Notes under the pieces: model-generated
Databases searched by the model: none
Told to the model about the DNA's origin: nothing
The model's input: only the letters and a program-made list of their open reading frames with translations
Translations under genes and position numbers: made by a program
In this document: positions 3,307 to 58,635 of the stretch, one piece after another
How positions within the stretch are numbered: the first letter of the stretch is position 1
Layout: each line of letters begins with the position of its first letter
IMG/VR virus record: IMGVR_UViG_3300025881_001848
DNA: 64,000 nucleotides
Origin: an uncultured virus (IMG/VR IMGVR_UViG_3300025881_001848)
Lineage: Duplodnaviria; Heunggongvirae; Uroviricota; Caudoviricetes
Reading direction: 5' to 3' (one strand)

Positions 3307-3459
3307 CCTTACTGGCAGTATTTCATTCGCTTATTAATCAAGCCCCGTCGAACGGGCTTATTTTCGCGCACCTCAAACAAAACAAACAAAATGATTGACA
3401 AATAATGTCATTATGATAATATATACCCACTGAAGAAACACACACAAAGCGAGAACCAC

Positions 3460-4617
3460 ATGACACAATTCAACGACGTAAAAACCAATAGATTTTCTAC
3501 TTTTTCAACGCTTAAAAATGACACTATGCTTGAGCCTATGTTTTTTGGTAATGGCGTTAACGTGGCTCGTTTTGACCAACAAAAGCACCCTATATTTGAG
3601 AAGTTGATTGAAAAGCAAATTTCTTTCTTCTGGCGTCCAGAGGAAGTTGATATCTCAAAGGATCGTATTGACTTTGAAAAGCTAAGCGATGCTGAAAGAC
3701 ATATTTTCACCTCAAATCTTAAGTATCAAACTTTGCTTGATTCGGTTCAAGGTCGCAGTCCTAACATTGCATTGCTACCAATTTGCTCACTGCCAGAGCT
3801 TGAAACTTGGATTGAAACTTGGTCGTTTTTCGAAACTATCCATAGTCGTTCGTATACGCATATTATTCGTAACCTATACTCTGATCCATCAACTGTATTT
3901 GGTGATATTGTAGAGAACGAGAAGATTAAAGAGCGTGCTGAGGATGTAGCGTTTTACTATGATGAATTAATCTTTGCTGTGCAATTGTATCAAACACAAG
4001 GTTTAGGCGCTCATATTGTAGACGGTGTAGAGCATGTGATTACCTTACGTGAGCTTAAAAAGAAGTTGTACCTGTGCATGAATTCTGTGAACGCACTTGA
4101 AGCTATACGTTTCTATGTTTCTTTTGCCTGTACATTTGCTTTTGCTGAGCGTGAAATGATGGAAGGTAACTCGAAAATAGTCCGCCTTATCGCTCGTGAT
4201 GAAAATATACACCTTGCGTCTACTCAACACATACTTAACTTGTGGAGAAGTGGTCAAGATGATCCAGAGATGGCTGAGATTGCCATTGAATGTAAGGATC
4301 AGGCTCGTGAGATATTTATGTCTGCGGTAAAACAGGAAAAGAATTGGGCAAAGTACTTATTCTCTAACGGTTCGATGCTTGGTTTAAATGAAGCCATCTT
4401 ATGCCAGTACGTTGAATATATTGCTAACATCCGTATGAAGGCTATAGGCTTTGATGCCCCGTTTGATATTGAAACTAACCCGTTACCTTGGATGAACAAC
4501 TATTTAAGCTCTGACGCAGTTCAGGTTGCTCCTCAGGAAGTGGAAGTAAGCTCTTATCTAACAGCTCAAATAGATGTAGAAGTAAGCTCAGATGATTTTG
4601 GTGACATGGAGTTATAA
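3460..4617 (+). CDS. nrdB: class Ia ribonucleotide reductase beta subunit
   Basis: [66 protein letters not shown]. Confidence 0.98.
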
Positions 4618-8516: not shown

Positions 8517-8580
8517 TTGACATAAATACTCATTATGATAATATTGCCTTACTGAAAACACACACACAAGGCATTATATT

Positions 8581-9060
8581 ATGGGACGTTCAGTTAGCAC
8601 ACCAAGCAATTGCGAAGCAGTAGCGAGAAAAGATACACTACACTTTGGTTACCCTTTCAATGAAGATACGCAAGAACACGATTTTGATGCCGGTTACTGC
8701 GAGATGCAAGGGCAAGATGATTACGAATACCTCAAAGACTCTATCTTAGAGCAAGCACAAGCACGCTGGCCATCATTTAATGCGGTAGAAAACAAGTGGT
8801 TGGGCAATGAGGATAAAGTCCTCTTAGAAAACGATTTAGCGTACATTGGCATATCAGAATATTGCGGCCTAACAGCAGTATGGTTAAAATCAAAGCATTC
8901 TGAGCTAGACGGTAGTTATTATGCGGAGGAAGCAAGCAGAGCGCCACTGTGTGAAGGGTTTGTATCACGCATCAGCGACACCTTTATGAAAATGTTCAAT
9001 GAATATAATCAAGTGGGTGCCTTTTCAAATGGCGAGGTGCTGCTGGAAAAGGTCGCATAA
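8581..9060 (+). CDS. phage-type hypothetical protein
   Basis: promoter 8517, CA leader, terminator near 9085. Confidence 0.8.
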   Translation: MGRSVSTPSNCEAVARKDTLHFGYPFNEDTQEHDFDAGYCEMQGQDDYEYLKDSILEQAQARWPSFNAVENKWLGNEDKVLLENDLAYIGISEYCGLTAVWLKSKHSELDGSYYAEEASRAPLCEGFVSRISDTFMKMFNEYNQVGAFSNGEVLLEKVA

Positions 9061-9396: not shown

Positions 9397-9554
9397 GTCT
9401 ATTCCTTTAGATATGCGTCTGTAGTGATAGCGAAATATTAGCATAAAATAATGTGAATAAAGCGCAACTAATTAAAAATAAATGATTGACAGATTATCAT
9501 AATGAAGTATACTGTAATCACTGAAACAAACACCCATACACAAGGTAATTTATT

Positions 9555-10257: not shown

Positions 10258-11022
10258 ATGTTTTTAAGTAATAGTAATAATAGTGGCGTATTTAGTAGAT
10301 TAGCGATAGTTGGTTTACTGTGTGTAGCATCAATTAGCGCATCGAATGCAGCTATCATCAGCGCCGATTTATTTGTCGCTAATGATGACAGGGCTTTCAT
10401 TGACACTTATACTGGTAATGAGTGGTTAAAATTAAATAATACATTGTATTACAGTATCAACCAATTTTCTGAAGACAATCCAGGTTCAACTTACTATCGT
10501 GGTTTGTTCCCAGGCTTTAGAGTGGCTACTTCAGCTGAGGTAAACACTTTATTTGAAAATACAATTGATTTTCTGGGGTTAACTTCGCTCACCAGTTCGG
10601 TTAATGGTGCGAGAACTGGCAACAGAGTTGATCATGATTTGGTTGAGATATTCACTGATAATGTATTTTCTCATAGGGATGCCTCTCGACAATTTATATC
10701 AAGCGGATTTCATTACTCGGCAGATGGGACGAATACAGTTTCAAGCTCATTTAATGGAAATACTCGTTCGGTTGATGCTCCGTTAAAAGTGAGTTTAGAT
10801 TTCAGTTCGCCCAACTATACTCTTGATACTAGCAGTTCGGGAACAGGTCTTTGGATGGTTTCTGAGGTTGTAGCTGGCACACTGAGCGCTCAGCTGGATG
10901 CTACATTGATAGAAAACCGTTCTAACAGCGAGGCTACCAGTGTCAATGCGCCAGCGACATTGTCGTTAATTGCATTGGGATTAGCCGGTGTGTTTTTTAG
11001 GCGAAAAGGTCTAATTGCATAA
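10258..11022 (+). CDS. PEP-CTERM-type sorted surface protein (VNAP variant)
   Basis: signal peptide; GNEWL; GFRVATSAEV; VNAP-TM-RRK tail. Confidence 0.85.
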   Translation: MFLSNSNNSGVFSRLAIVGLLCVASISASNAAIISADLFVANDDRAFIDTYTGNEWLKLNNTLYYSINQFSEDNPGSTYYRGLFPGFRVATSAEVNTLFENTIDFLGLTSLTSSVNGARTGNRVDHDLVEIFTDNVFSHRDASRQFISSGFHYSADGTNTVSSSFNGNTRSVDAPLKVSLDFSSPNYTLDTSSSGTGLWMVSEVVAGTLSAQLDATLIENRSNSEATSVNAPATLSLIALGLAGVFFRRKGLIA

Positions 11023-11987: not shown

Positions 11988-12053
11988 TCACTTGACATAA
12001 TTTTTCATTATGATAATATTTACATACTGAAAAACACACACAAGAGCACCATT

Positions 12054-12392
12054 ATGACCGCTCCTACTTTAGGTTCTGATATTGTCACTAAGCTTACGCG
12101 TATTATCCCTCGCAAAGATGGTTCAGAGGTGCGTATAGTGGTTGATTCAACTGCTTGCCCTAGCACGCTTAATCGCCATTCCTTTACATATGTACACAAG
12201 CGCCAAACCCCCGAACATAATTGGGAGTTGTGTAGCGATTCGCCGCATCCAGATTGGAAAAAAATGTCGAGAGCCGATTATGTGTCCTTTGGCCGCTCTG
12301 AGAAGTTGCAGTCAGTTAGCCATGGAGAGATCTTAGGGCTTAGTCAGTGGATAGGTAAGCCTATGGCTGAATTCGAACAAGCACACGCTTAA
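12054..12392 (+). CDS. hypothetical protein
   Basis: promoter 11992, CA leader. Confidence 0.8.
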   Translation: MTAPTLGSDIVTKLTRIIPRKDGSEVRIVVDSTACPSTLNRHSFTYVHKRQTPEHNWELCSDSPHPDWKKMSRADYVSFGRSEKLQSVSHGEILGLSQWIGKPMAEFEQAHA

Positions 12393-13932: not shown

Positions 13933-14069
13933 CATTATCGGCAGTGCGTCGAGTGTCACATTGAAAGGGAGGTATACCTCTCTTTTTTGGCGCTCAAATT
14001 AAAATTAATGATTGACATATTATCATAATGAACTATAATGAATCATCAAATAAACGAGAGCACACACAC

Positions 14070-15269
14070 ATGACACCTATTAATTTCGCAAACATTATTA
14101 AATATAGCAACGCAGTTTTACCAGAAGTTGAGAAGCCGGTGTCCAAGATGTGGGCAATCGAATTACGTTCAAAACGAACGGATATCTTTATTGCCCTATA
14201 TGAGCGTTTACTCGAAGCAACTTCGCCTTTAGTGGTTGATTGCGCTCACGCGAATATGGAAGAGTGCCCCTTAATGAATGGTGGTGTTGCGGTGTTCTTC
14301 TTTGAGACTAAAGAGCAAGCTCAATCATTATCAACGTTGTATGATTTGTTTGAGGAGGACGCCAGAGAAAAAAGTATTCATCAGTTAGCGGGTGAGCCTA
14401 ACCCTTTACAAGTGTTAATAAGTTCTTATGAGCTATTCGGTACGCACGTTGACCGTTTGTTTGAAGTAAGTAAGATAGGTGCAGATACTGCCATGAAGCG
14501 TGCTGAGGATATTGCTAGCAATGCGACAGTGGATAGTGATTGGCATGATCGTGTTATTGGTGTGGCTAAGCGATTAAATGATGAGTCTTTAACGCTACAG
14601 TCAGAAGTCGATGAAATGATTGAGACGATTAAAGCGACTTACAGTGGTTTTGAGGATGATGCGGATTTACGTCGATTTATAGAGGTTATTGCCAATGAGA
14701 CGGTAGAAATCTATACACAGGGTAATGTGATTGAAAGCCATGCAGCTTTATACACTGATATATCATTGACCGAGCTTATTGATGTACTGGGTACACAAGA
14801 TGATAGTGACGATGCGTTAATAGCAAAGCATGATGCTAAGCAAAATAAATTATTGAACAGCAATGAGCGTGCAAGTATTGTGCGTGATAACTGGGAAATG
14901 CACAAAAAAAGCTTGAACATCATGTTATGTAAGCGTTACTGCGATGCGAAACATAAGCGTTTGTCAGCCCCTGTGTCGTTTTGTGGTTTGCATATTGGTT
15001 CGTTAATGACTGAATCATTTGGTGAGCGATTGGAGACTAAAAGTGCAGTGCGCACCATGGAAAATATTGGGCTAACAGATCTAGAATTACTCGCGAGTGC
15101 TATTGTAGCGCAACTAGGTGGATACATTGAACTTAAACGCGGTCAGAGATTACGTAACAAGCGTCATGCGTTGGCCAAAGCGTTAGTGGCTAAAGAAAGC
15201 TTTTCTAAAATTGAAGCGTATGAGCAGATGAATCGCGATCTTGAAGATGTGCTGGATATTACTGGCTAA
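14070..15269 (+). CDS. hypothetical protein
   Basis: long ORF; start revised to ATG after GAGAG-CACACACAC. Confidence 0.85.
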   Translation: MTPINFANIIKYSNAVLPEVEKPVSKMWAIELRSKRTDIFIALYERLLEATSPLVVDCAHANMEECPLMNGGVAVFFFETKEQAQSLSTLYDLFEEDAREKSIHQLAGEPNPLQVLISSYELFGTHVDRLFEVSKIGADTAMKRAEDIASNATVDSDWHDRVIGVAKRLNDESLTLQSEVDEMIETIKATYSGFEDDADLRRFIEVIANETVEIYTQGNVIESHAALYTDISLTELIDVLGTQDDSDDALIAKHDAKQNKLLNSNERASIVRDNWEMHKKSLNIMLCKRYCDAKHKRLSAPVSFCGLHIGSLMTESFGERLETKSAVRTMENIGLTDLELLASAIVAQLGGYIELKRGQRLRNKRHALAKALVAKESFSKIEAYEQMNRDLEDVLDITG

Positions 15270-16740: not shown

Positions 16741-17445
16741 ATGAAATTAACAAAAGTATTAGCGGCTGCGTTGCTCTTAGGTGCTTCGCTAAGCTCACAA
16801 GCAGCAGTTATTAGCGTAGATTGGAAAGAAGCTGGTGATAATGGCGCGTTTGTAGAAACGACCTCGGGCACTGAGTGGTTAAAGTTAACGCAGACTCAAG
16901 GGGTTGGGCTTAACACTGTTCAGCAGCAGCTAGGTGCCGGTGGACTCTATGAAGGCTTTAGAGTGGCAGATTCGAATGAAGTACAGTTCCTTTTTGACTA
17001 TTTCTTGGGGCAGGCAACGGGGTTAACGTACACATCAATCTCGGCGTTTGATTTTGCTGACAGCAGCACAGTCGATGGCAGAGCGTTGATGGTTGACTTG
17101 TTGGATGCTTTAGGCCGAGCGATAGTGGGTACAAATACCTTTTCAACTGGTCGGTATTTTCAAGCGGGTTCTCAATCGGTGTTATCATCAACATTCAGAG
17201 ACGATGACGCAAACGGGTTTGCTCGGCTTATTTACGACAGGGTAACATCAACAACGAATGCAAATACTCCAGGTTCTGCTCCTGGTGTATTCTTGGTGTC
17301 TGACGGCGGGAATACGTTCAGCTCAATTAACAACCCTGGGATCCTAAGTGGCATCGAAACACCATCGGTAGCCGTGAGTGAGCCACATGCGTTAGCATTG
17401 TTAGCGTTAGGTTTTGCTGGGTTAGTGCTTAGACGAAAAGCGTAA
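16741..17445 (+). CDS. PEP-CTERM-type sorted surface protein (VSEP)
   Basis: signal peptide; GTEWL; GVFLVSDGG; VSEP-TM-RRKA. Confidence 0.9.
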   Translation: MKLTKVLAAALLLGASLSSQAAVISVDWKEAGDNGAFVETTSGTEWLKLTQTQGVGLNTVQQQLGAGGLYEGFRVADSNEVQFLFDYFLGQATGLTYTSISAFDFADSSTVDGRALMVDLLDALGRAIVGTNTFSTGRYFQAGSQSVLSSTFRDDDANGFARLIYDRVTSTTNANTPGSAPGVFLVSDGGNTFSSINNPGILSGIETPSVAVSEPHALALLALGFAGLVLRRKA

Positions 17446-19186: not shown

Positions 19187-19722
19187 ATTTTATCACTCTT
19201 AATGTGTGTCGCGGCATCTCGCTTACGCTTAAGTCCTTGTTCGCCCAGTTCCTGTAAATCGAACAAGTTATCAAGCGTTGGCGTCACCCCTGTGAATTGT
19301 TCAAAAGTGGCTAATTCCATATACTGACAGTTAAACAGGACACGGCCGGTTATGAAATGAGCTTCTTTGTCAATTCGCTTCATTAACCGATAAAGGTTAG
19401 GGGCTTTATTTTTGTGTACTTTGATATCATCTTTGTACAGTTTAACCATTTTATCCCAATCGCGGATAAACGGGGCATACTGGGGGGCGTCATCAACGAT
19501 GGCCGATATATTTTTGATGGAGGGGCATGCGGCTAACATATCCATGCAGCGTTTTAGATCAGATGGATCTGATGGGGTTGAGATGTGTTTTGTCTCAATG
19601 CTGGCCATGCGAAAAGCGATACATTTTGATGATGTGCCAGTGCGGCCATTAGCAAGCCAGTTAAGTACTTCTAATCGAATAGTGTCTATATCACCATTGG
19701 TGGCGGTAGCATTATGCGTCAT
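19183..19722 (-). CDS. phage-type hypothetical protein
   Basis: WLANGRTGTSSK, PSDPSDLKRC; AAGGA RBS. Confidence 0.75.
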   Translation of the reverse strand: MTHNATATNGDIDTIRLEVLNWLANGRTGTSSKCIAFRMASIETKHISTPSDPSDLKRCMDMLAACPSIKNISAIVDDAPQYAPFIRDWDKMVKLYKDDIKVHKNKAPNLYRLMKRIDKEAHFITGRVLFNCQYMELATFEQFTGVTPTLDNLFDLQELGEQGLKRKRDAATHIKSDKI

Positions 19723-19912
19723 GCGTAATTCCTTTTGTTATTGCGTCCGTTGTAAACCCAGGCGAAGTGATTGCTTTTACCCGTGTGTTGAGATGATAGC
19801 AGTTTTTATTTTTTTACCCTCAACCACGCTATTTAGCGGCTGTGTATTGTGGGTTTTATTTTTTATTGTGATAAATTTACGCATACAATATAGATTAATA
19901 TGGACATTACTT

Positions 19913-20629
19913 ATGAAATTAACAAATATTTTAGCTGCCGCCGCATTGCTTAGCGCTTCGTTAGGCTCTCAAGCAGCCATTATTAGTGTTGACTGGAAAG
20001 TTGCGGGTGACAACCGAGCGTTTATAGAAACCACCTCGGGCACTGAATGGTTGAATGTGAATGAGACACAAGGACTCAGTGTTAACACGGTTAGCGGTGA
20101 ATTTGGTGCTAATGGTTTATACGAAGGTTTTAGGGTAGCAACGGCAAGTGAGATGCAGCCCTTGTTTGATTTATTTTTGGGGAGCGCACCAAATTTAGTT
20201 AGTGAGCCGAATCCGGATTACACCAACATCCTCTCGTATACAAATGAGGGGATGGCAATAATGGCTGATATTCGTGGTGTTATTGGGGAGACCAACGCTA
20301 ATGTAAATAGCGCTGTAACTGTCGGCATGTATTTTGATGACGCTGGCACTGGTTCATCATCAGTCAGGATGACGCATTTTATTGAATCCTTTTCATCAGA
20401 TGCTGGTCGGCTTATTTACGATAGGACGTTTTCCTCTTTAGATAATGGTTATACCGGATCGTCTGTTGGCGTTTTTCTTATCTCAGATGGCGGCAACACA
20501 TTTAGCACGATTAATAACCCAGGGTTATTAACGGGCGGTAATACATCGACAACAGAAGTGAGTGAGCCACATGCGTTAGCGCTGCTTGCATTTGGTTTCG
20601 CCGGATTAGTACTTAGACGTAAGGCGTAA
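19913..20629 (+). CDS. PEP-CTERM-type sorted surface protein (VSEP), close paralog of 16741
   Basis: start revised to ATG 19913 (MKLTNILAAA); near-identical tail to 16741. Confidence 0.9.
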   Translation: MKLTNILAAAALLSASLGSQAAIISVDWKVAGDNRAFIETTSGTEWLNVNETQGLSVNTVSGEFGANGLYEGFRVATASEMQPLFDLFLGSAPNLVSEPNPDYTNILSYTNEGMAIMADIRGVIGETNANVNSAVTVGMYFDDAGTGSSSVRMTHFIESFSSDAGRLIYDRTFSSLDNGYTGSSVGVFLISDGGNTFSTINNPGLLTGGNTSTTEVSEPHALALLAFGFAGLVLRRKA

Positions 20630-20637
20630 CAATAATA

Positions 20638-21345
20638 GTGAGAAAATATATAGGTAAACTATTGGTAACGGGCGCGTTATTAATGACCGCATCGATAGGG
20701 GCGAATGCTGCTATTATCAGCGCCGACTTTGAGACGGGTAATGATGGTAACGCTTTTATCGATACACGTGCTGGGTATGAGTGGATTAAGTTGACGCAGA
20801 CCGCCGGCATGGCTATTTCGACAGCATCCCAAAGAACGGAAGAGGGTCAGCGCTTTGAAGGCTTTAGAGTGGCCTCTGAAGTGGAAATGGGGGAGTTGTT
20901 CGCATCTATTGATGAGTTGTTAACGTATGAGCGCTCTGGGGGGATCCTAAGCGGCAGAAGTAATTTACAAGCTGACTATGATGCCATGCTAAGTGTCATA
21001 ACAACAATCGGTATATTGCAAAGTGGCTCAACCGCAAAACATGCCCCTGGGCTTTATCAGGGGACTAATGGGGTTATCTACCGGTCACTAATGTCGGTAG
21101 GGACGGCGAGCAATAGAAGTAATTCATTAAGCACTCAGTACACTGGCAACTATTTCGAATACCAAGGGCTAAATGGTTTTGGTATTTTCCTTGTGTCAGA
21201 TGGCTACAATACGTTGTCATCCCAACTCGCCCCCACATTATTGAACAACAATCCGCTATACGCGGTTACCGAGGTTTCAGCACCCGCGTCTTTTGCGTTG
21301 CTGGGCGTAGGTTTGTTGGGGTTATTGGCAAGACGCCGAGACTAA
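20638..21345 (+). CDS. PEP-CTERM-type sorted surface protein (VSAP)
   Basis: signal peptide; GYEWI; GIFLVSDG; VSAP-TM-RRRD. Confidence 0.85.
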   Translation: MRKYIGKLLVTGALLMTASIGANAAIISADFETGNDGNAFIDTRAGYEWIKLTQTAGMAISTASQRTEEGQRFEGFRVASEVEMGELFASIDELLTYERSGGILSGRSNLQADYDAMLSVITTIGILQSGSTAKHAPGLYQGTNGVIYRSLMSVGTASNRSNSLSTQYTGNYFEYQGLNGFGIFLVSDGYNTLSSQLAPTLLNNNPLYAVTEVSAPASFALLGVGLLGLLARRRD

Positions 21346-22911: not shown

Positions 22912-23622
22912 ATGAGACTGCCAAAATTATTAACAGTTGGACTACTGCTTAGTCTTACTTTTTCTTCGCAAGCCGCTATTATTGATATTGACTGGAAGGT
23001 CGCAGGCGATAATCGTGCTTTCTTGGAAGTTGAATCTGGCACAGAGTGGTTAGATGTCAGTGAAACTTCAGGTCTGAGTCTCGTTGATGCGGCCTCTTTA
23101 ATAGTTACCGGCGGAATTTACGAAGGGTTCAGGATTGCCAGTGAAACCGAAGTCAACTATTTGTTTGACACCCTTTTTACGCCATCCAACCAATATTCTG
23201 AACAGGTATATAGTGCAGGTGACTACTTTAAAACATTTTCAGCTTCAGATGTTGCTTTAGTTGGGAATAATGTTGCTAGTATGGGCGTTGTAGTTGATCA
23301 CCCTGCTGTGTTTGCGACGGGTGGCACTTATTACAATGACCAGAACCAAGCATCAGTAATGTTTAAGCAGCAAAGATCGGCGGCTGGTGAGGCTAGAGTG
23401 TTTAACAACACTCAGTTTGCCAGCATAGCAGCCGAAGATAATCAAACGTTATATGGCGTATATTTGGTTTCAGATGGTGGGGCGACATACAGCACTATTA
23501 ACGATCCCTCTTTGGTTGCTAATAACACAGGCGTTCCGAACGCAACTGAAGTCAGTGAGCCTGGGGCACTAGCGCTACTTGGCTTGGGGCTGGCTGGTTT
23601 ATTGGTTCGCCGCAAAGTTTAA
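22912..23622 (+). CDS. PEP-CTERM-type sorted surface protein (VSEP)
   Basis: signal peptide; GTEWL; GVYLVSDGG; VSEP-TM-RRKV. Confidence 0.9.
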   Translation: MRLPKLLTVGLLLSLTFSSQAAIIDIDWKVAGDNRAFLEVESGTEWLDVSETSGLSLVDAASLIVTGGIYEGFRIASETEVNYLFDTLFTPSNQYSEQVYSAGDYFKTFSASDVALVGNNVASMGVVVDHPAVFATGGTYYNDQNQASVMFKQQRSAAGEARVFNNTQFASIAAEDNQTLYGVYLVSDGGATYSTINDPSLVANNTGVPNATEVSEPGALALLGLGLAGLLVRRKV

Positions 23623-23869: not shown

Positions 23870-23894
23870 AAGCTGGCTTATGCCGGCTTTTTTT
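23870..23894 (+). terminator. intrinsic terminator
   Basis: AAGCTGGC-TTAT-GCCGGCTT followed by T-run. Confidence 0.85.
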
Positions 23895-24157
23895 ATGCGC
23901 GAAGATAAAAAATGATTGACATTAGTTATCATTTTGATATGATTGTGTTGTTGACAGAGCGTGATGTGCACTCGGGGTACATTGCCAGTCAATTAGCAAG
24001 TCAGGCTAGCCACTCGTGTACAGAATACTTCTGGATGGTGAACTGATAACAACAGTTATTTCATATGACGTTCGTTTACAAATTTAACGCAGTGCAACCT
24101 AAGTGTTGCGGTGTTTAATACACGGGTCACCTAAAGCAACACACAATAGGAAGCATT

Positions 24158-31602: not shown

Positions 31603-31733
31603 CAACGAACACTTATATCATTCGTATTTTACGGTAAAGTGAAATAATATTGTATGTCAAAAATAAATGATTGACATTAAGAGTCATTATGATAATATTA
31701 CCTCACTGAAACAAAACACACACAAAAGGCAGA

Positions 31734-32222
31734 ATGAACATGGCTTCAAAAGGCGTAAATAAGTGCATATTAGTTGGTAATTTGGGTCAAGATCCAGAAG
31801 TAAGAACCATGCCCAACGGCACCGCAGTGGCAAATTTAAGTATCGCGACCAGTGAGTCGTGGAAAGATCAACAAGGTGTCAAGCAAGAGCGCACTGAGTG
31901 GCACAGGTTGACGATGTATAAGGGTTTAGCGGAGATTGCAGGTAAATTCCTTACTAAGGGGTCGCAGATTTACGTTGAAGGCAAACTGCAAACGCGTAAA
32001 TGGCAAAATCAGCAAGGTCAAGATCAATATACGACTGAAATTGTTGTGAGCGACATGCAAATGTTGGGCGGTGGCAAGCAAAACCAAAATAATCAGAATG
32101 GCGGCCAGAACCAAGGTGGTGGCGGTTATCAACAAAATAATCAGCAACCGCAGAACCAAGGTGGTCAGCAAAACAATCAACAGCCTTCAAATAATGATTT
32201 TAACGATTTCCCCGACAATTAA
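31734..32222 (+). CDS. ssb: single-stranded DNA-binding protein
   Basis: [37 protein letters not shown] linker; tail DFNDFPDN differs from canonical DDDIPF. Confidence 0.97.
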
Positions 32223-33454: not shown

Positions 33455-33590
33455 CAAAAATTCACATGGATAAGGTCGCTAAAAAGCGGCCTTTTTTATT
33501 GCATTAAATAATAAAAATGATTGACAATAATGTTCATTATGATAATATTACCTTACTGAAACGCAACACACACACCAAAGGAAAACGTTT

Positions 33591-35427: not shown

Positions 35428-35499
35428 AATAAATGATTGACAACATTATCATAATGAAGTAAAATGGTTTTATTGAATCGGAACACACAAGGCAAGACG

Positions 35500-36129
35500 A
35501 TGACCCAGAACAATCAGTACGAACAATCAGAGACCCAGCGCATTATTGATTTAATGCAGCGTATTGAGAGCGACGGGTTTAAGGGCGGCATAGTGATGTC
35601 GGCCGATGGTCAGAAGTCCAAGAATTTATCTATCTCGGTAGCCCAGGCTATCAAGATCCAAGCGATACTTGTAGAAGGTGACATCCCTTTACGCCAGGAG
35701 GCAGCATTTACCCTTACGTTGGTGAGTGAGTTGTCATCGGGCATGATGCTAGATTTAGGTCGTGATGAGCACGTAGATCCACATGATAAGAATGTGAGGC
35801 TAAGAGATGCTTATGTAACAGTTGAGGCTGTTACGCGAACGAATACAGGTATCATTGTGGCTTTTGCAGATTTTGAAAATGTACGATTGCCGGAGGATCA
35901 CCAAGTGAAGGTGGTTGCGTTGGTACCAGAAAAAGCAGGCGACAAGGTGTATGCGTATGCGGTTAGTGATGAGTCTGGAGAAACTGTATTAGAAACCGAC
36001 GACATCGAGGCAGCACGAGAATGTGTAGATGATATTAATGATGAGCTTTCTGAAGACGATAGAATTACCGCCCGAGCTGCATTAATGGAACGAAATAGTG
36101 ATGGCACTGGATACACCCGCCTTGACTAA
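35500..36129 (+). CDS. hypothetical protein directly upstream of the hairpin array
   Basis: promoter 35437; ACACACAAGG leader; start revised. Confidence 0.8.
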   Translation: MTQNNQYEQSETQRIIDLMQRIESDGFKGGIVMSADGQKSKNLSISVAQAIKIQAILVEGDIPLRQEAAFTLTLVSELSSGMMLDLGRDEHVDPHDKNVRLRDAYVTVEAVTRTNTGIIVAFADFENVRLPEDHQVKVVALVPEKAGDKVYAYAVSDESGETVLETDDIEAARECVDDINDELSEDDRITARAALMERNSDGTGYTRLD

Positions 36130-36141
36130 TGTGAAGACTTC

Positions 36142-36454
36142 GACTTGCTAGACTGTGTGTGGTGTAGCAAGTCACCCTACTACGGGTAATAAGACTGTGT
36201 GTGGTTTTATTACCCACCCCTACGAGTGACTGAACTGTGTGTGGTTTTGTCACTCATCCTTTAGATTGGCGAGCTGTGTGTGGCACGCCAATCACTTTCT
36301 TCGGGCAACTGACTGTGTGTGGTTAAGTTGCCCACCCTTTTCGATTGGTGCGCTGTGTGTGGCTCACCAATCCATTTCTTCGGGTGACAATGCTGTGTGT
36401 GGCGTTGTTACCCAACCTCTTCGAGATGGCAGACTGTGTGTGGTTTGCCATCTC
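36142..36454 (+). ncRNA. array of eight hairpins with invariant UGUGUGUG loops
   Basis: loops at 36154, 36196, 36236, 36275, 36314, 36354, 36394, 36435; variable complementary stems; G-U pairs favour + strand. Confidence 0.85.
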
Positions 36455-36586
36455 AACCTCTTTGCAATAAAACCCCTTGATACAACATCCCTTAAGACCC
36501 ATTAAACCTCAATAAAATAACTAAATGATTGACAAAATAATTCACCATGATAATATGTATTCATTGAAATAACCCAAGAGAGCACC

Positions 36587-36937
36587 ATGAAAAAAATCAA
36601 CGTATTATTCAGTAAAGACAATAATCATGCGGTTACAGACTGTAATGCCGCGAGCTGGTACCAGACGTTATTGGCGTGCTCCAACGAGGGTGGTGTACAG
36701 ACGGCGGTTATGGCCACGGGCACCATGTTAAATGAGCTTCGTATCGGCGTGCGTTTGAAAGAAATTGAACCTTTTGAGTTCCAGTACGAAGGGCAAACGA
36801 TTAAGTGCGGTGAGCAAGGGCAGTTAGATTCTTGGCCACTGGGGTTGTTTGATGAATTGTCATCTCAAATGTACGTATTAATGTCTGGTTGCACGCGTGA
36901 AGAGGCTGCCGAGAAGAGCGCAGGGAGGCTGCGCTAA
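36587..36937 (+). CDS. hypothetical protein
   Basis: promoter 36529. Confidence 0.8.
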   Translation: MKKINVLFSKDNNHAVTDCNAASWYQTLLACSNEGGVQTAVMATGTMLNELRIGVRLKEIEPFEFQYEGQTIKCGEQGQLDSWPLGLFDELSSQMYVLMSGCTREEAAEKSAGRLR

Positions 36938-37602: not shown

Positions 37603-37712
37603 CGGTGACAGCACTCGCAAGGGTATTTCATTTATTTAGCTATAAATGATTGACAAAACATCAAAATGATAATATACTGGTTTTACTGAATCGGAACACA
37701 CAAGGCAAGACG

Positions 37713-38560: not shown

Positions 38561-38618
38561 CAAATGTTCAAAATGATAATATAATGTTTGTATTGAATCA
38601 AACCACGGAAACACACAC

Positions 38619-39050
38619 ATGACACCTATAATCAAACCTATAATCAAACCTATATTTAAAGCCATATTAGACGAAGCAATTGCCACCGGCGATCAAGCTA
38701 ACATTGACGCGATGAAAGTGGCTATTGAGCAAGAAATATTCTTTGTTGAAGTTATTGTTACCGGCATAGGCCAGTATAGCATGGGTTCGACCTCTGTTGA
38801 TGTTGAGGGTAAAGATACGCCTATTCCTTGTGTGTATGCAACTCAAGCGGAAGTATTAGCCGAAATTAAAGATGAAACCCAGCGTTACGAATCAGAAGTG
38901 CAAGGCGGCGAACGTGATGTAGAAGATGAATACGAAGGTCAGTTAATGGCCATGAAGTGGGATGGCGGTACGCAAGTGTCATTCTTTGATGTTGATGATT
39001 TGGATGCGAAACTTGATGAAGGCGCGTGGCGCTGGCATGCGGGTCACTAG
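38619..39050 (+). CDS. acidic hypothetical protein
   Basis: promoter 38557; GGAAACACACAC-ATG. Confidence 0.8.
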   Translation: MTPIIKPIIKPIFKAILDEAIATGDQANIDAMKVAIEQEIFFVEVIVTGIGQYSMGSTSVDVEGKDTPIPCVYATQAEVLAEIKDETQRYESEVQGGERDVEDEYEGQLMAMKWDGGTQVSFFDVDDLDAKLDEGAWRWHAGH

Positions 39051-39371
39051 TGTCGATGGTCGGTTGTGTTGTCAGTCGGCCTTCTCATCCTAACTGCCAA
39101 TCATTTATAAATTAATGATTGACAAAAAGGTGATAATCATTATAATAGGTAGTAAGAGTTAAGGGGGAACGCCCCCACGCAAGCCAAGCGGTTAAAGAGC
39201 TTAGATGTCTTCCAGTTATTTACAATTGAGTCGCCATGCTAGATACCCAAGAGGATGAAAGAACACGAAAGGAGCTGTCAACATCAGCTGTTAACCTTTC
39301 ATTTAATTAATAACCGGTGTCCATAGTGGTACGCCAGTCCACTTTATTGAATTAAATGAGAGTCGCATATT

Positions 39372-40118: not shown

Positions 40119-40886
40119 ATGAAGAGTATGATGAGAAAGGTGGCAGTTACCGCTGTATTACTGTTGACCATGGGGTCGGCGTCAGCTGAGCTTATTAAAG
40201 TTGATTTGAGCGAGACGGGATCGCTAGGTGTGACACTTGATTCTGACACAGGACTTGAGTGGTTAGGGCTTCGAAGCACGCTTGGTATGTCAATGAATGA
40301 GGCCTTAACGGCCTTTTCAGGATGGCGATTAGCTACTGAATTTGAAGTTAACACGGTTGTTGATAAAGTGAGGCAAGGAGAGCGTTACAGTAGTTATTTT
40401 GGCAGTGCGTTTCAGCAAGATATCTCGCTATATAATTCCAGTAACTCAGGAAATAGTTACTTTGTGCAGTATGCAGGCAAGCTTTTTAATACGTTTCAAG
40501 GCGGTAACACAGCTCCTTATCAAAGTGGTGTTAGCATGCGCGTAGGGTCGGGTCTGCATCTTAGTGACACCACGGGTGGATTGTTGCTGACAGGCGGCAA
40601 TAGCTTCTCGGATTCAAACGGTACTTATATTCGCTATAACGATATTACGTCGTCGAATTTGTCGGATGTGAAAGATTATAAAGGTGCACAAATGTCAGTG
40701 TTTTTAGTGTCAGATGGTGGTCAGTCATTTGCTTCATTGCAAGACCCAACACTGAATATTAACAATCCTAACGCACCAATTAACAATGCAACTGCGGTAA
40801 GTGAGCCTGGGGCGTCAGCAATTTTAGGTTTAGGACTGATGGGCTTGGCGGTTCGCCGCAAGCGAATGAATGAGTTTAATGGATAA
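40119..40886 (+). CDS. PEP-CTERM-type sorted surface protein (VSEP)
   Basis: signal peptide; GLEWL; VFLVSDGG; VSEP-TM-RRKR. Confidence 0.9.
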   Translation: MKSMMRKVAVTAVLLLTMGSASAELIKVDLSETGSLGVTLDSDTGLEWLGLRSTLGMSMNEALTAFSGWRLATEFEVNTVVDKVRQGERYSSYFGSAFQQDISLYNSSNSGNSYFVQYAGKLFNTFQGGNTAPYQSGVSMRVGSGLHLSDTTGGLLLTGGNSFSDSNGTYIRYNDITSSNLSDVKDYKGAQMSVFLVSDGGQSFASLQDPTLNINNPNAPINNATAVSEPGASAILGLGLMGLAVRRKRMNEFNG

Positions 40887-40896
40887 AAAGGGTAGT

Positions 40897-41703
40897 ATGA
40901 ACATGAAAAGTTTGATGAAAAAGGTAATTGTAGCGACGGCGCTGTTATTAACAGTAAACGCAGCATCCGCTGGGCTTATCCGAGTTGATTTAAGCAGCGC
41001 GGGTTCTCAGGGTGTAACGCTTGATACTGACACTGGTATAGAGTGGTTAGGGTTAAGCAATACTTTAGGTATGTCAATGAATGAGGCCTTAACGGCTTTC
41101 TCTGGCTGGCGCGTAGCAACACAGTTTGAAGTCGGCACGGTGATTAATAAAGTTCTTGCCGGTGAAGCTTATGAGAATTTCTTTGGCAGTGCGCTTCAAA
41201 GTGGTTATGGTCAAATTGACTACGGAAGCTCGCGTAACAGTTATTATGTGCAGTTTACTAATAAGATGCACAGTGTATTTCAAGGTGGAAACACGGCACC
41301 GGCATCTGATGGGCGTTTTTTGAGGGTGGCTGATGGCTTGCACATTAATGACGTTACAGGCGGTCTAATCCGTTCAGGCACCACTATTGCGTCAAACCGG
41401 TATTACCAGCGAATTTATTTTAACCGTGGCTTAGGCATAAGTTTGCCTGATATTATGGATTATAAAAGGGCAGATGCTTCGGTGTTTTTAGTGTCAGACG
41501 GTGGCCGGTCATTTGCTTCATTGCAAGATCCAACTATCAATGCTAACAACGCCAATGCGCCAATCAATAACGCGACTGCCGTGAGCGAGCCTGGGGCGTT
41601 AGCGCTCTTAGGATTAGGCCTAATGGGTTTAGCCGTTAGCCGTAAGCGTAAAAATGGTTTAGCGGTTCGTCGTAAGCGTCACAATGGCTTTTCCGGTGGC
41701 TAA
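40897..41703 (+). CDS. PEP-CTERM-type sorted surface protein, tandem paralog of 40119
   Basis: same motifs; duplicated basic tail; start revised. Confidence 0.9.
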   Translation: MNMKSLMKKVIVATALLLTVNAASAGLIRVDLSSAGSQGVTLDTDTGIEWLGLSNTLGMSMNEALTAFSGWRVATQFEVGTVINKVLAGEAYENFFGSALQSGYGQIDYGSSRNSYYVQFTNKMHSVFQGGNTAPASDGRFLRVADGLHINDVTGGLIRSGTTIASNRYYQRIYFNRGLGISLPDIMDYKRADASVFLVSDGGRSFASLQDPTINANNANAPINNATAVSEPGALALLGLGLMGLAVSRKRKNGLAVRRKRHNGFSGG

Positions 41704-47040: not shown

Positions 47041-47182
47041 TTTCTGCGTCCTTTGTGTGTGTTTCTTAACTGTCCCTATTATCCGTTAAACAGCCTTATT
47101 TGTCAATCATAAATATTTATTAACCCACAAAAAAGGCTACACAATAGTAGCCCTTTTACGGTGGTTGGTTAGTGCATAACCC

Positions 47183-57864: not shown

Positions 57865-57934
57865 AAATGATTGACATAAGGCGTCATTATGATAATATTA
57901 AGGTATAGAAAAACCCCGCACAAAGGTAGTGATT

Positions 57935-58224: not shown

Positions 58225-58635
58225 TTATGCGATGACGATGTTTTTGAATCCACCCAGCACATCAATGTGCTTTTTAATATCATAGGTATCGACCAGTTCG
58301 GCACCTACTTCAATCTCCGTTAGGGCGTAGACGTAAAGTTTACGCCCTTTTAGTATGCTATATACATTGGCAACACTGTTGTGATTGATGTAGCTGTACT
58401 TTGTTCTAAATGGGATGGCGGCGATATGCGTTTCATCTATTTTGTACTTTTCCATGAAATACACCAGGTCATGATCATCACTTGCCAACAGTGCTTTATA
58501 CTCCTGGGTAGTCAATACCTGTCCTTCTAATATACATAGCAAAGTGTCTTTGGCGATAAGGTGTGTGGCAAACAGTCCGTGCCCGTGCAGCGGTGAGGGT
58601 TTAACGGTGGTGTGCTTGATGTTATCGATGGCCAT
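58225..58635 (-). CDS. SET-domain protein (putative lysine methyltransferase)
   Basis: SPLHGHGLFA, YINHN..AN, ALTEIEVGAELVDTY. Confidence 0.85.
   Translation of the reverse strand: MAIDNIKHTTVKPSPLHGHGLFATHLIAKDTLLCILEGQVLTTQEYKALLASDDHDLVYFMEKYKIDETHIAAIPFRTKYSYINHNSVANVYSILKGRKLYVYALTEIEVGAELVDTYDIKKHIDVLGGFKNIVIA

Follow-up and report, generated by a model that had tools for sequence, protein, structure and literature searches.

Eight covarying hairpins in tandem in an uncultured virus carry an invariant loop complementary to CA tracts at ribosome-binding sites

Among the RNAs that offer a comparison for the locus described here, GcvB is encoded by a host gene, carries one linear, single-stranded seed per RNA and ends in an intrinsic terminator. 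The seeds of the Listeria LhrC1-5 RNAs and of RNAIII and the Rsa RNAs of S. aureus are C/U-rich, target the Shine-Dalgarno sequence itself and number two or three per RNA, and they belong to bacterial genes with their own promoters and terminators; the unit of ToxI is roughly 36-40 nt long. ACA motifs near the Shine-Dalgarno sequence enhance translation with some flexibility of position, and it is by masking such motifs with a G/U-rich seed that GcvB exerts its repression (excerpt of PMC3879156). In the present work, we analysed a stretch of 64,000 nucleotides (hereafter the window) from the uncultured virus IMGVR_UViG_3300025881_001848 (Caudoviricetes), in which positions 36142-36454 of the + strand form a non-coding array of eight tandem hairpins, all with the loop UGUGUGUG. 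This loop is the exact complement of CACACACA, a motif that recurs beside ribosome-binding sites throughout the window. The array is a real, strongly selected structured element of new design, and its function is what we infer below, putatively as a multi-seed antisense RNA.

The array lies between a stop codon (36127-36129) and a promoter (36529-36556), and its loop is embedded in an invariant 10-mer apex, CTGTGTGTGG, which starts at 36153, 36195, 36235, 36274, 36313, 36353, 36393 and 36434, giving core-to-core spacings of 42, 40, 39, 39, 40, 40 and 41 nt. This 10-mer occurs eight times in the window, each time within the array, against an expectation of 0.08, and none of 100 shuffles reached eight occurrences. 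The minimum free energy (MFE) fold of 36142-36456 consists of eight separate hairpins with stems of 11-13 bp each; its 97 pairs comprise 83 Watson-Crick and 14 G·U pairs, eight of the latter being the invariant U·G directly beneath the loop. A first-pass annotation, made from the sequence alone, had described eight hairpins with a period of 39-42 nt, had quoted their arms and had called the unit multivalent; sequence and fold bear out the positions, the period and the arms, and eight copies of one loop make the unit multivalent indeed. The same annotation had each loop closed by a C-G pair. This pair is present, and the description can be refined: in the thermodynamic model, C-G and U·G together close the loop, and GUGUGU is reliably open.

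The individual hairpins, all on the + strand and all taken from the MFE fold, differ in the details of their stems. Hairpin 1 (36142-36173) has one G/G mismatch, hairpin 2 (36184-36215) has 13 consecutive pairs with one G·U in the variable stem, and hairpin 3 (36224-36255) has one U/U mismatch and one G·U. Hairpins 4 (36264-36293) and 6 (36343-36372) are paralogues whose seventh stem pairs differ, C-G having been replaced by U-A in a compensatory manner, while hairpin 5 (36303-36333) carries a one-base bulge on its 3' arm and one G·U. Thirteen pairs are formed in both hairpin 7 (36382-36413), where two of them are G·U/U·G in the variable stem, and hairpin 8 (36423-36454), where one is G·U. Tandem Repeats Finder detects a single two-unit duplication (79-nt period over 36229-36384, 2 copies, 80% matches) and nothing else in the array, which argues that the units are old and diverged.

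Selection on the structure is evident once the eight units are aligned on the core and pairing is scored with a 12-pair helix. Only the 10 core columns of the 36 aligned columns are invariant, mean column identity being 70%; the loop does not vary, whereas all stem positions do, apart from the closing C-G. Nonetheless, 88.5% of the cells are paired, against 63.4% in column shuffles, and the observed value was reached by none of 500 shuffles; sliding the 3' partner by 1-3 columns leaves 30-55% of cells paired. Both sides change in 10 of the 12 pairs, with double changes in 29 cells against 10.8 expected, so the internal covariation claimed in the first-pass annotation is real. Furthermore, a covariance model of one unit, run over the 64 kb, recovered the eight units at 40-50 bits and nothing else comparable, the next-best match (18 bits) being the opposite strand of the same units. 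Core count, covariation and covariance model thus agree on the array as a whole, and the eight-hairpin observation, confirmed by them, cannot be due to chance.

Several other explanations were considered and rejected. An 88-aa open reading frame (ORF) overlaps the array at 36239-36505 and shares zero words with a collection of 5.8 billion protein sequences; moreover, unit periods of 39-42 nt disrupt any reading frame, and a coding region was dismissed. A CRISPR array was likewise set aside: conservation is confined to the 10-nt core, and what varies between units are hairpin arms that pair with each other, not unique spacers. ARAGORN found no tRNA or tmRNA gene in the window, and the array is not tRNA-like.

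The strand of the element can also be called. Six G·U pairs and not a single A·C mismatch occur in the variable stems, whose remaining irregularities are G/G, U/U, A/A, C/U and one bulge; the folding energy over 36130-36470 is -151.5 kcal/mol on the + strand and -126.2 kcal/mol on the - strand; the neighbouring genes all lie on the + strand; and no - strand promoter-like site was found to the right of the array. These four observations favour a + strand transcript, the strand that had been called from the sequence alone. They bear directly on another reading, in which a - strand transcript would display CACACACA loops as a leader mimic and act as a sponge for a binder of CA tracts, either a protein or a host G/U-rich small RNA (sRNA) such as GcvB. 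Prophage-encoded anti-sRNAs reportedly act against GcvB. Known sponges copy the motif of the target and not its complement, as a - strand transcript would, and the existence of prophage-encoded anti-sRNAs is documented (excerpt of PMC4104026). On that strand, however, the six G·U pairs would turn into C·A mismatches and the fold is 25 kcal/mol worse, and both the missing promoter and the orientation of the neighbouring genes count against it, so that we regard such a sponge as extremely improbable.

The second line of evidence concerns the leader motif. With 34 occurrences against 2.5 expected, CACACACA is the most enriched 8-mer of the window, eight of the 34 coming from the array itself when its - strand is read. 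The rest of the window holds 48 tracts of (CA)3 or longer; 36 of these either abut an ATG that begins an ORF of 45 aa or more or precede such an ATG by 0-23 nt (+ strand: 29 of 31 tracts; - strand: 7 of 17). These 36 linked tracts are 8 nt (14 tracts), 6 nt (9), 7 nt (6), 10 nt (5) or 9 nt (2) long, and the modal length of 8 nt (14 of 36) is that of the (UG)4 in the loop. The complementarity of the loop to a tract linked to ribosome-binding sites, a central claim of the first-pass annotation, is therefore upheld by the enrichment of the 8-mer and by the 36 of 48 tracts at ATGs. Its statement that the motif stands beside the ribosome-binding sites of more than 25 genes is correct when tracts of 6-7 nt are counted, but not for the full 8-nt complement of the loop, which 21 of the 36 linked tracts offer.

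The CA tracts occur in two arrangements: a CA tract followed by an AGG Shine-Dalgarno sequence, about 8 nt and the ATG, or a GAGAG Shine-Dalgarno sequence followed by a CA tract and then, without a gap, the ATG. The distance from the tract to the -10 box varies between 12 and 32 nt, but its contact with either the Shine-Dalgarno sequence or the ATG is constant. In addition, CA tracts precede genes without a promoter of their own (e.g., at 2203, 6719, 24140, 28841 and 34047). Because contact with the ATG or Shine-Dalgarno sequence is fixed, the distance to the -10 box is variable and promoter-less genes are included, the CA motif is to be seen as a feature of the ribosome-binding site, and hence of the mRNA, rather than of the promoter. 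The leaders of 21 of the window's 26 promoters carry a CA tract, the promoter behind the array (36529-36556) being among the five that do not. Across the 36 leaders, the tracts have a predicted mean unpaired probability of 0.78.

Individual examples illustrate how varied the candidate targets are. CACACACA is found on the + strand in the leader of the ribonucleotide reductase small subunit (3439-3446; ATG at 3460), 11 nt before the ATG of ORF 12054-12392 (12035-12042, with an unpaired probability of 0.97), in the leader of the single-stranded DNA-binding protein (SSB) gene at 31734-32222 (31717-31724), and abutting the ATG of ORF 38619-39050 (38612-38619); on the - strand, it lies 13 nt before an ATG (47054-47061). 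A (CA)5 tract stands directly 5' of the Shine-Dalgarno AGG of ORF 8581-9060 (8559-8568, +), and another exemplifies the second arrangement, following GAGAG and abutting the ATG (14061-14070, +). The leader may also be conserved beyond this genome. P0002, a 44%-identical homologue, encoded on a 38.7-kb contig, of the protein upstream of the array, has an N-terminal extension that is a translated leader, the ORF having been called into it, and this extension is identical over 8 residues to the translation of the window leader (35464-35499), CA tract included; read from these protein letters, the agreement suggests nucleotide-level conservation of the leader in a diverged relative.

That an invariant 8-nt loop should match exactly the complement of the most over-represented 8-mer of the genome by coincidence is very unlikely, and three links between loops and CA tracts are possible: base pairing, a shared double-stranded DNA site, and common descent of both motifs. 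The second of these belongs to a wider DNA-level explanation, according to which the element would act either as hairpins in + strand single-stranded DNA (a replication, packaging or recombination signal) or as eight double-stranded CACACACA/TGTGTGTG protein sites shared with the CA tracts. Because DNA hairpins accommodate G·T pairs as well, the asymmetry between the strands is no proof of RNA and a + strand single-stranded DNA hairpin is formally possible; a double-stranded site, being blind to orientation, would connect the array with the CA tracts without any pairing. However, the CA tracts go with ribosome-binding sites, even those of internal genes that lack a promoter, at variable distance from promoters, which points to a role at the RNA level and disfavours a shared DNA site. 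Arms that vary and yet are compensated make no sense for a double-stranded site and thus disfavour double-stranded recognition. Cruciform extrusion is disfavoured by a 10-nt spacer, and cumulative GC skew shows a steady rise across the region, without any switch where the array lies. Altogether, we judge a DNA-level function highly improbable.

Base pairing is the link that we pursue. In this reading, the array would be a multi-seed antisense RNA that silences CA translation enhancers in a manner like GcvB, a putative function that we hold tentatively and with somewhat less than even confidence. The transcriptional context is compatible with a + strand RNA: no promoter-like site was found in the interval from the stop codon (36129) to hairpin 1, and no terminator-like site on either side of the array. 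With no promoter of its own and no terminator in between, the array should be transcribed as the 3' untranslated region (UTR) of ORF 35500-36129 from a near-consensus sigma-70-type promoter (TTGACA-17 nt-TAAAAT) at 35437-35465 (+), which should drive the ORF and the array together. The leader of this operon itself contains a CA tract, CACACA, directly 5' of the Shine-Dalgarno AGG (35484-35489, +).

The proposed mechanism would then run as follows. Transcribed on the + strand in this 3' UTR, the array would present eight G/U-repeat loops on stable stems of 11-13 bp as eight identical antisense seeds, and these would pair with the single-stranded CA tracts that, in at least 35 genes of the window, adjoin the start codon or the Shine-Dalgarno sequence. 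The stable stems should also shield the RNA from 3' exonucleases; accumulating as a stable RNA, the array would progressively lower, or otherwise co-regulate, translation of the phage's own CA-leader genes, as an RNA counterpart of a phage early-gene translational repressor. The analysis establishes the covarying structure, its strand preference, the complementarity, the openness of loops and CA tracts and the transcriptional context; accumulation, loop-leader pairing in vivo and a repressive sign are the steps that we infer. In the thermodynamic model, the central UGUG of the loop is 95-100% unpaired and the flanking G/U 72-77%, and a CA/UG duplex is worth -10.4 kcal/mol over 8 bp and -6.1 kcal/mol over 6 bp. 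In its strongest form, the proposal is an RNA-only global switch, an eight-seed 'anti-enhancer' RNA that titrates the CA enhancers of the phage's early regulon, would shut down or co-ordinate early translation without a repressor protein and would combine the role of T4 RegA with GcvB-like chemistry and multivalent hairpins. We consider this stronger version somewhat unlikely. The regulon would comprise at least 35 genes in the 64-kb window and probably far more across about 565 kb.

Several observations weigh against an antisense function. The model leaves only the 6 nt of GUGUGU freely open, the U·G closing pair being about 94% formed; since pairing over 8 bp requires this pair to be opened, a single loop-leader contact is weak, at an estimated net -8 to -9 kcal/mol before any penalty for loop geometry. 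The closing C and G are invariant in all eight units although pairing does not need them, the leaders mostly having A on both sides, and invariance of the whole 10-mer suits recognition by a protein at least as well. The stems lack target-specific complementarity: their longest exact matches to the rest of the window are 10-11 nt and lie in coding sequence, which also rules them out as target-specific guides. The operon of the array shares its promoter and leader type with the presumed targets, so the timing of any shut-off is left unexplained, and the G-free linkers between the hairpins are not accounted for by antisense pairing. Finally, all evidence comes from one genome, and the stretch is present in three runs, all of them marine-metagenome DNA and none on record as RNA; its sequence is unchanged in the probable source run, and the two other runs hold low-depth identical fragments with the array outside their coverage.

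Some of these observations lead to a different account, of which the first-pass annotation had already named the sponge form, and in which the array is a protein-binding platform whose eight loops, perhaps together with the G-free linkers, dock one phage or host RNA-binding protein or nuclease and serve as sponge, decoy or cis-regulatory 3' UTR. The tandem iron-responsive elements of the transferrin-receptor mRNA are a cis-regulatory 3' UTR of this kind. Further parallels are CsrB for CsrA and the phage pseudo-ToxI for the ToxN toxin, and the complementarity to CA tracts would then be indirect or incidental. An entire 10-mer that is invariant down to its closing C-G, while the stems drift, is the signature of loop-specific protein recognition, and the non-random linkers suggest a second feature that is either recognised or deliberately unstructured. 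There are documented cases of phage RNA repeats by which a host toxin is neutralised (excerpt of PMC3475682), and the gene downstream of the array, which is like a fragment of a defence-type ATPase, gives a weak hint of an anti-defence neighbourhood. Against such a platform, no RNA-binding family was found among 106 ORFs compared with Pfam (35 + 71) or 35 compared with PHROGs, and a literature search found no bacterial binder of UG loops; CsrA is excluded as a partner by the lack of GGA in the loops. If the array were a protein platform, its exact complementarity to the 8-mer most enriched in the window would have to be coincidental. We regard such a platform as unlikely, though by no means far-fetched. 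Two further ideas were considered: a poly(UG)-type quadruplex might form from four GUGUGU loops, and the hairpins might be anticodon-loop-like decoys for a GU-specific anticodon nuclease, although stems of 11-13 bp with loops of 6-8 nt are unlike anticodon arms.

Equally relevant is the material between and behind the hairpins. The seven linkers (36174-83, 36216-23, 36256-63, 36294-302, 36334-42, 36373-81 and 36414-22, +) are 8-10 nt long, pyrimidine-rich and G-free; counted over 62 nt, they contain 26 C, 24 T, 12 A and no G, and at the G content of the window the chance of zero G is about 8e-8. The first-pass annotation had recognised their pyrimidine richness, and the absence of G is more striking still. 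It had also suggested that the linkers could reach the Shine-Dalgarno sequence of the same target, and here the geometry is against it: a stem arm of 11-13 bp separates linker from loop, while in the leader the CA tract touches the Shine-Dalgarno sequence or the ATG, so that one unit cannot pair contiguously with both. From the array to the next promoter runs a C-rich, G-poor, unstructured tail (36455-36528, +), in which no intrinsic terminator was found; a count over 72 nt of it (36457-36528) gave 4 G and 20 C. Its composition resembles that of Rho-loading sites, which are typically C-rich and G-poor.

This composition, together with the position of the array right after a stop codon and before the next promoter, would suit a cis-acting 3'-end element, in which the hairpins block 3' exonucleases and so stabilise the mRNA upstream of them, while the C-rich, G-free linkers (26 C, no G) and the tail load Rho and stop read-through into the next promoter, an intrinsic terminator being absent. 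Stem-loops ahead of early promoters are moreover a known phage layout, that of the PeSLs (excerpt of PMC2839356). Nevertheless, such an element leaves the invariant loop and its complementarity to CA tracts unexplained, one or two hairpins would suffice for it, and elsewhere in the window the hairpins between genes are single and either A/T-rich or ordinary, none with the array loop. As the sole function of the array it is improbable, whereas a 3'-end function could coexist with either antisense pairing or a protein platform.

Searches for a described family or for homologous arrays support the view of an element of new design. Scanning the whole window with Rfam at gathering thresholds gave no match, and a permissive scan of 35900-36700 gave seven matches, all with E of at least 2.6 and with 10.7-21.5 bits against gathering scores of 45-88; no comparable array was found described in the literature either, in keeping with the first-pass annotation, which had recognised no described family. 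Pattern searches with two cores at the right spacing in viral contigs returned 7 loci, and searches with three cores in genome contigs 13 loci, none of them a hairpin array. Three cores in metagenome contigs matched at least 131 stretches, all GT-rich tandem repeats among the matches listed; at the best locus among those, 8 or more of the 12 flank pairs were Watson-Crick for 3 of 8 cores, while in the array of the window all 8 of 8 cores have 9 or more. In viral contigs, three (TG)4 units matched 95 stretches, in none of which any core had 9 or more flank pairs.

Relatives of the locus as a whole were equally scarce. Megablast of the window against 50,697 phage and 72,556 plasmid records gave no DNA match, a distant blastn of 36100-36600 gave two 30-nt chance matches, and tblastn of two ORFs gave none. 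Three runs of related-locus searches in viral contigs yielded nothing, nothing and one weak match, L270, which was rejected as a relative (59% GC, and without such promoters). The pattern of promoter plus CA tract matched 30 viral contigs once each, which is chance level, and the 18-nt leader pattern matched no viral contig.

The wider setting looks like the early region of a very large phage. The window holds about 110 mostly small ORFs, nearly all without a family, and encodes both class I ribonucleotide reductase subunits, an SSB and a SET-domain protein. The last, a lysine methyltransferase-like protein at 58225-58635 (-; Pfam E = 1e-10), is an observation of its own in a phage-like genome. 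Unusual cargo for such a genome are seven + strand ORFs that terminate in a PEP-CTERM sorting motif (10258-11022, 16741-17445, 19412-20629, 20638-21345, 22912-23622, 40119-40886 and 40870-41703; E between 6e-6 and 2e-3, with five that reach or exceed the Pfam cut-off), and these hint at a host with an exosortase system.

The genes on either side of the array belong to this setting. Upstream, ORF 35500-36129 (+) encodes a protein of 209 aa (P0001) with no Pfam, PHROGs or PADLOC family, and its 3' UTR is the array; it starts at 35500, not at 35464, according to homologue alignments. The protein is 100% identical on contigs as long as 564,925 bp and belongs to a tiny family, for which 1.84 billion representatives yielded 11 proteins at E <= 0.001; besides P0002, its homologues include P0003, P0004 and P0005. 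Its AlphaFold model has a mean pLDDT of 38 and is unusable, and an atlas hit with a score of 0.77 is a lead only. Pfam gave nothing informative on four homologues of this protein or on the two ORFs downstream of the array. The next promoter (36529-36556, +; sigma-70-type, TTGACA-16 nt-TAATAT with TG) has a leader without a CA tract and precedes ORF 36587-36937 (+), of 116 aa, whose product is similar to the C-terminal DUF3696 portion of AAA_15/AAA_21 ATPases (atlas structure row with a TM of 0.60; PADLOC NsnB, E = 0.0011; PF12476, E = 0.0014, short of the Pfam cut-off). This product could be a fragment of a defence protein that serves as an anti-defence decoy.

The promoters of the window form a system in their own right. 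There are 26 near-consensus sigma-70-type promoters with TTGACA on the + strand, in two classes. Common to both is an 11-bp perfect palindrome, ATTAT[G/C]ATAAT, with 33 matches (at most one mismatch) against 3.4 expected (e.g., 1807-1817, 3410-3420, 9493-9503, 35445-35455 and 57886-57896), which overlaps the -10 region in one class and, oppositely oriented, occupies the spacer in the other; it has the look of an operator common to all early promoters and bound by a dimeric regulator. In addition, short A/T-rich palindromes of 8-11 bp lie just before or overlap the conserved AAATGA-TTGACA of several promoters (23889-23912, 33493-33517, 37628-37649, 39098-39121 and 44808-39), a layout that resembles a stem-loop-plus-promoter cassette. 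Furthermore, the leaders at 35484-35499 and 37697-37712 (+) are identical from the CA tract to the ATG (genes at ATG 35500 and 37713), which suggests that promoter-leader cassettes have been copied between genes, as in PeSL shuffling.

The significance of the array differs with the reading. Should the loops indeed pair with the CA tracts, the array would be the first multivalent antisense RNA of a phage to be directed against a translation enhancer common to a whole temporal class of the phage's own genes, and ACA/CA enhancers, which are known from a few enterobacterial mRNAs, would prove usable for regulation across an entire genome. Should a protein bind to it instead, the array would reveal a new loop-specific RNA-protein pair in giant-phage infection. 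Either way, an invariant 10-nt apex on free stems with G-free linkers is a compact and testable design, and the array, of a kind that Rfam does not cover, has a specific and equally testable link to a regulon-wide leader motif.

Comparison with the systems outlined at the beginning places the array between several of them. With the PeSL cassettes of T4-type phages it shares strong sigma-70-like early promoters and stem-loops between small early genes of unknown function (excerpt of PMC2839356); an early-type promoter follows the array, at 36529-36556, and some of the 26 such promoters in the window lie behind short palindromes. In contrast to the single, effective terminator of a PeSL, however, the array consists of eight tandem hairpins without U-tracts, none scored as a terminator, and its loop motif is absent from every other intergenic region of the window. 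Like ToxI and pseudo-ToxI, it is a phage-borne tandem array of RNA units that can be expanded by duplication (excerpt of PMC3475682), but ToxI units are near-identical direct repeats, while the array has 10 invariant columns of 36 and one two-unit duplication. No gene for a ToxN/CptN/TenpN-type endoribonuclease was found among the 106 ORFs compared with Pfam, and PADLOC on nine neighbouring ORFs gave the weak NsnB match only.

Several conserved loop seeds that pair with ribosome-binding regions are also a feature of the Listeria LhrC1-5 RNAs and of S. aureus RNAIII and the Rsa RNAs (excerpts of PMC4132741 and PMC2790875), from which the array differs by seeds that are G/U in composition and eight per RNA, and by its place in a phage 3' UTR without a promoter of its own. 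In construction, its closest counterparts are CsrB/CsrC and RsmX/Y/Z, in which many hairpins show one short conserved loop motif on variable stems. Their loops, however, carry GGA and mimic the mRNA targets of CsrA, whereas the loop of the array is the complement of an mRNA motif; GGA occurs nowhere in 36142-36456, and the CsrB/CsrC/RsmX/Y/Z models of Rfam match neither the window at the gathering threshold nor 35900-36700 among the seven permissive matches (E up to 10).

The likeness to GcvB lies in a G/U-rich seed complementary to CA/ACA tracts that adjoin the Shine-Dalgarno sequence of many mRNAs, with flexible position of the enhancer (excerpt of PMC3879156). At this locus, the likeness extends to the level of complementarity and no further, between (UG)4 loops and 36 (CA)3-5 tracts linked to ribosome-binding sites. 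Unlike GcvB, the array holds eight seeds in hairpin loops, within a phage 3' UTR that provides neither its own promoter nor a terminator, and the Rfam model of GcvB has no match in the window. The interpretation given in the first-pass annotation is partly supported. By analogy, then, the array would function most like GcvB and is built most like CsrB or RsmZ, while being a member of neither family.

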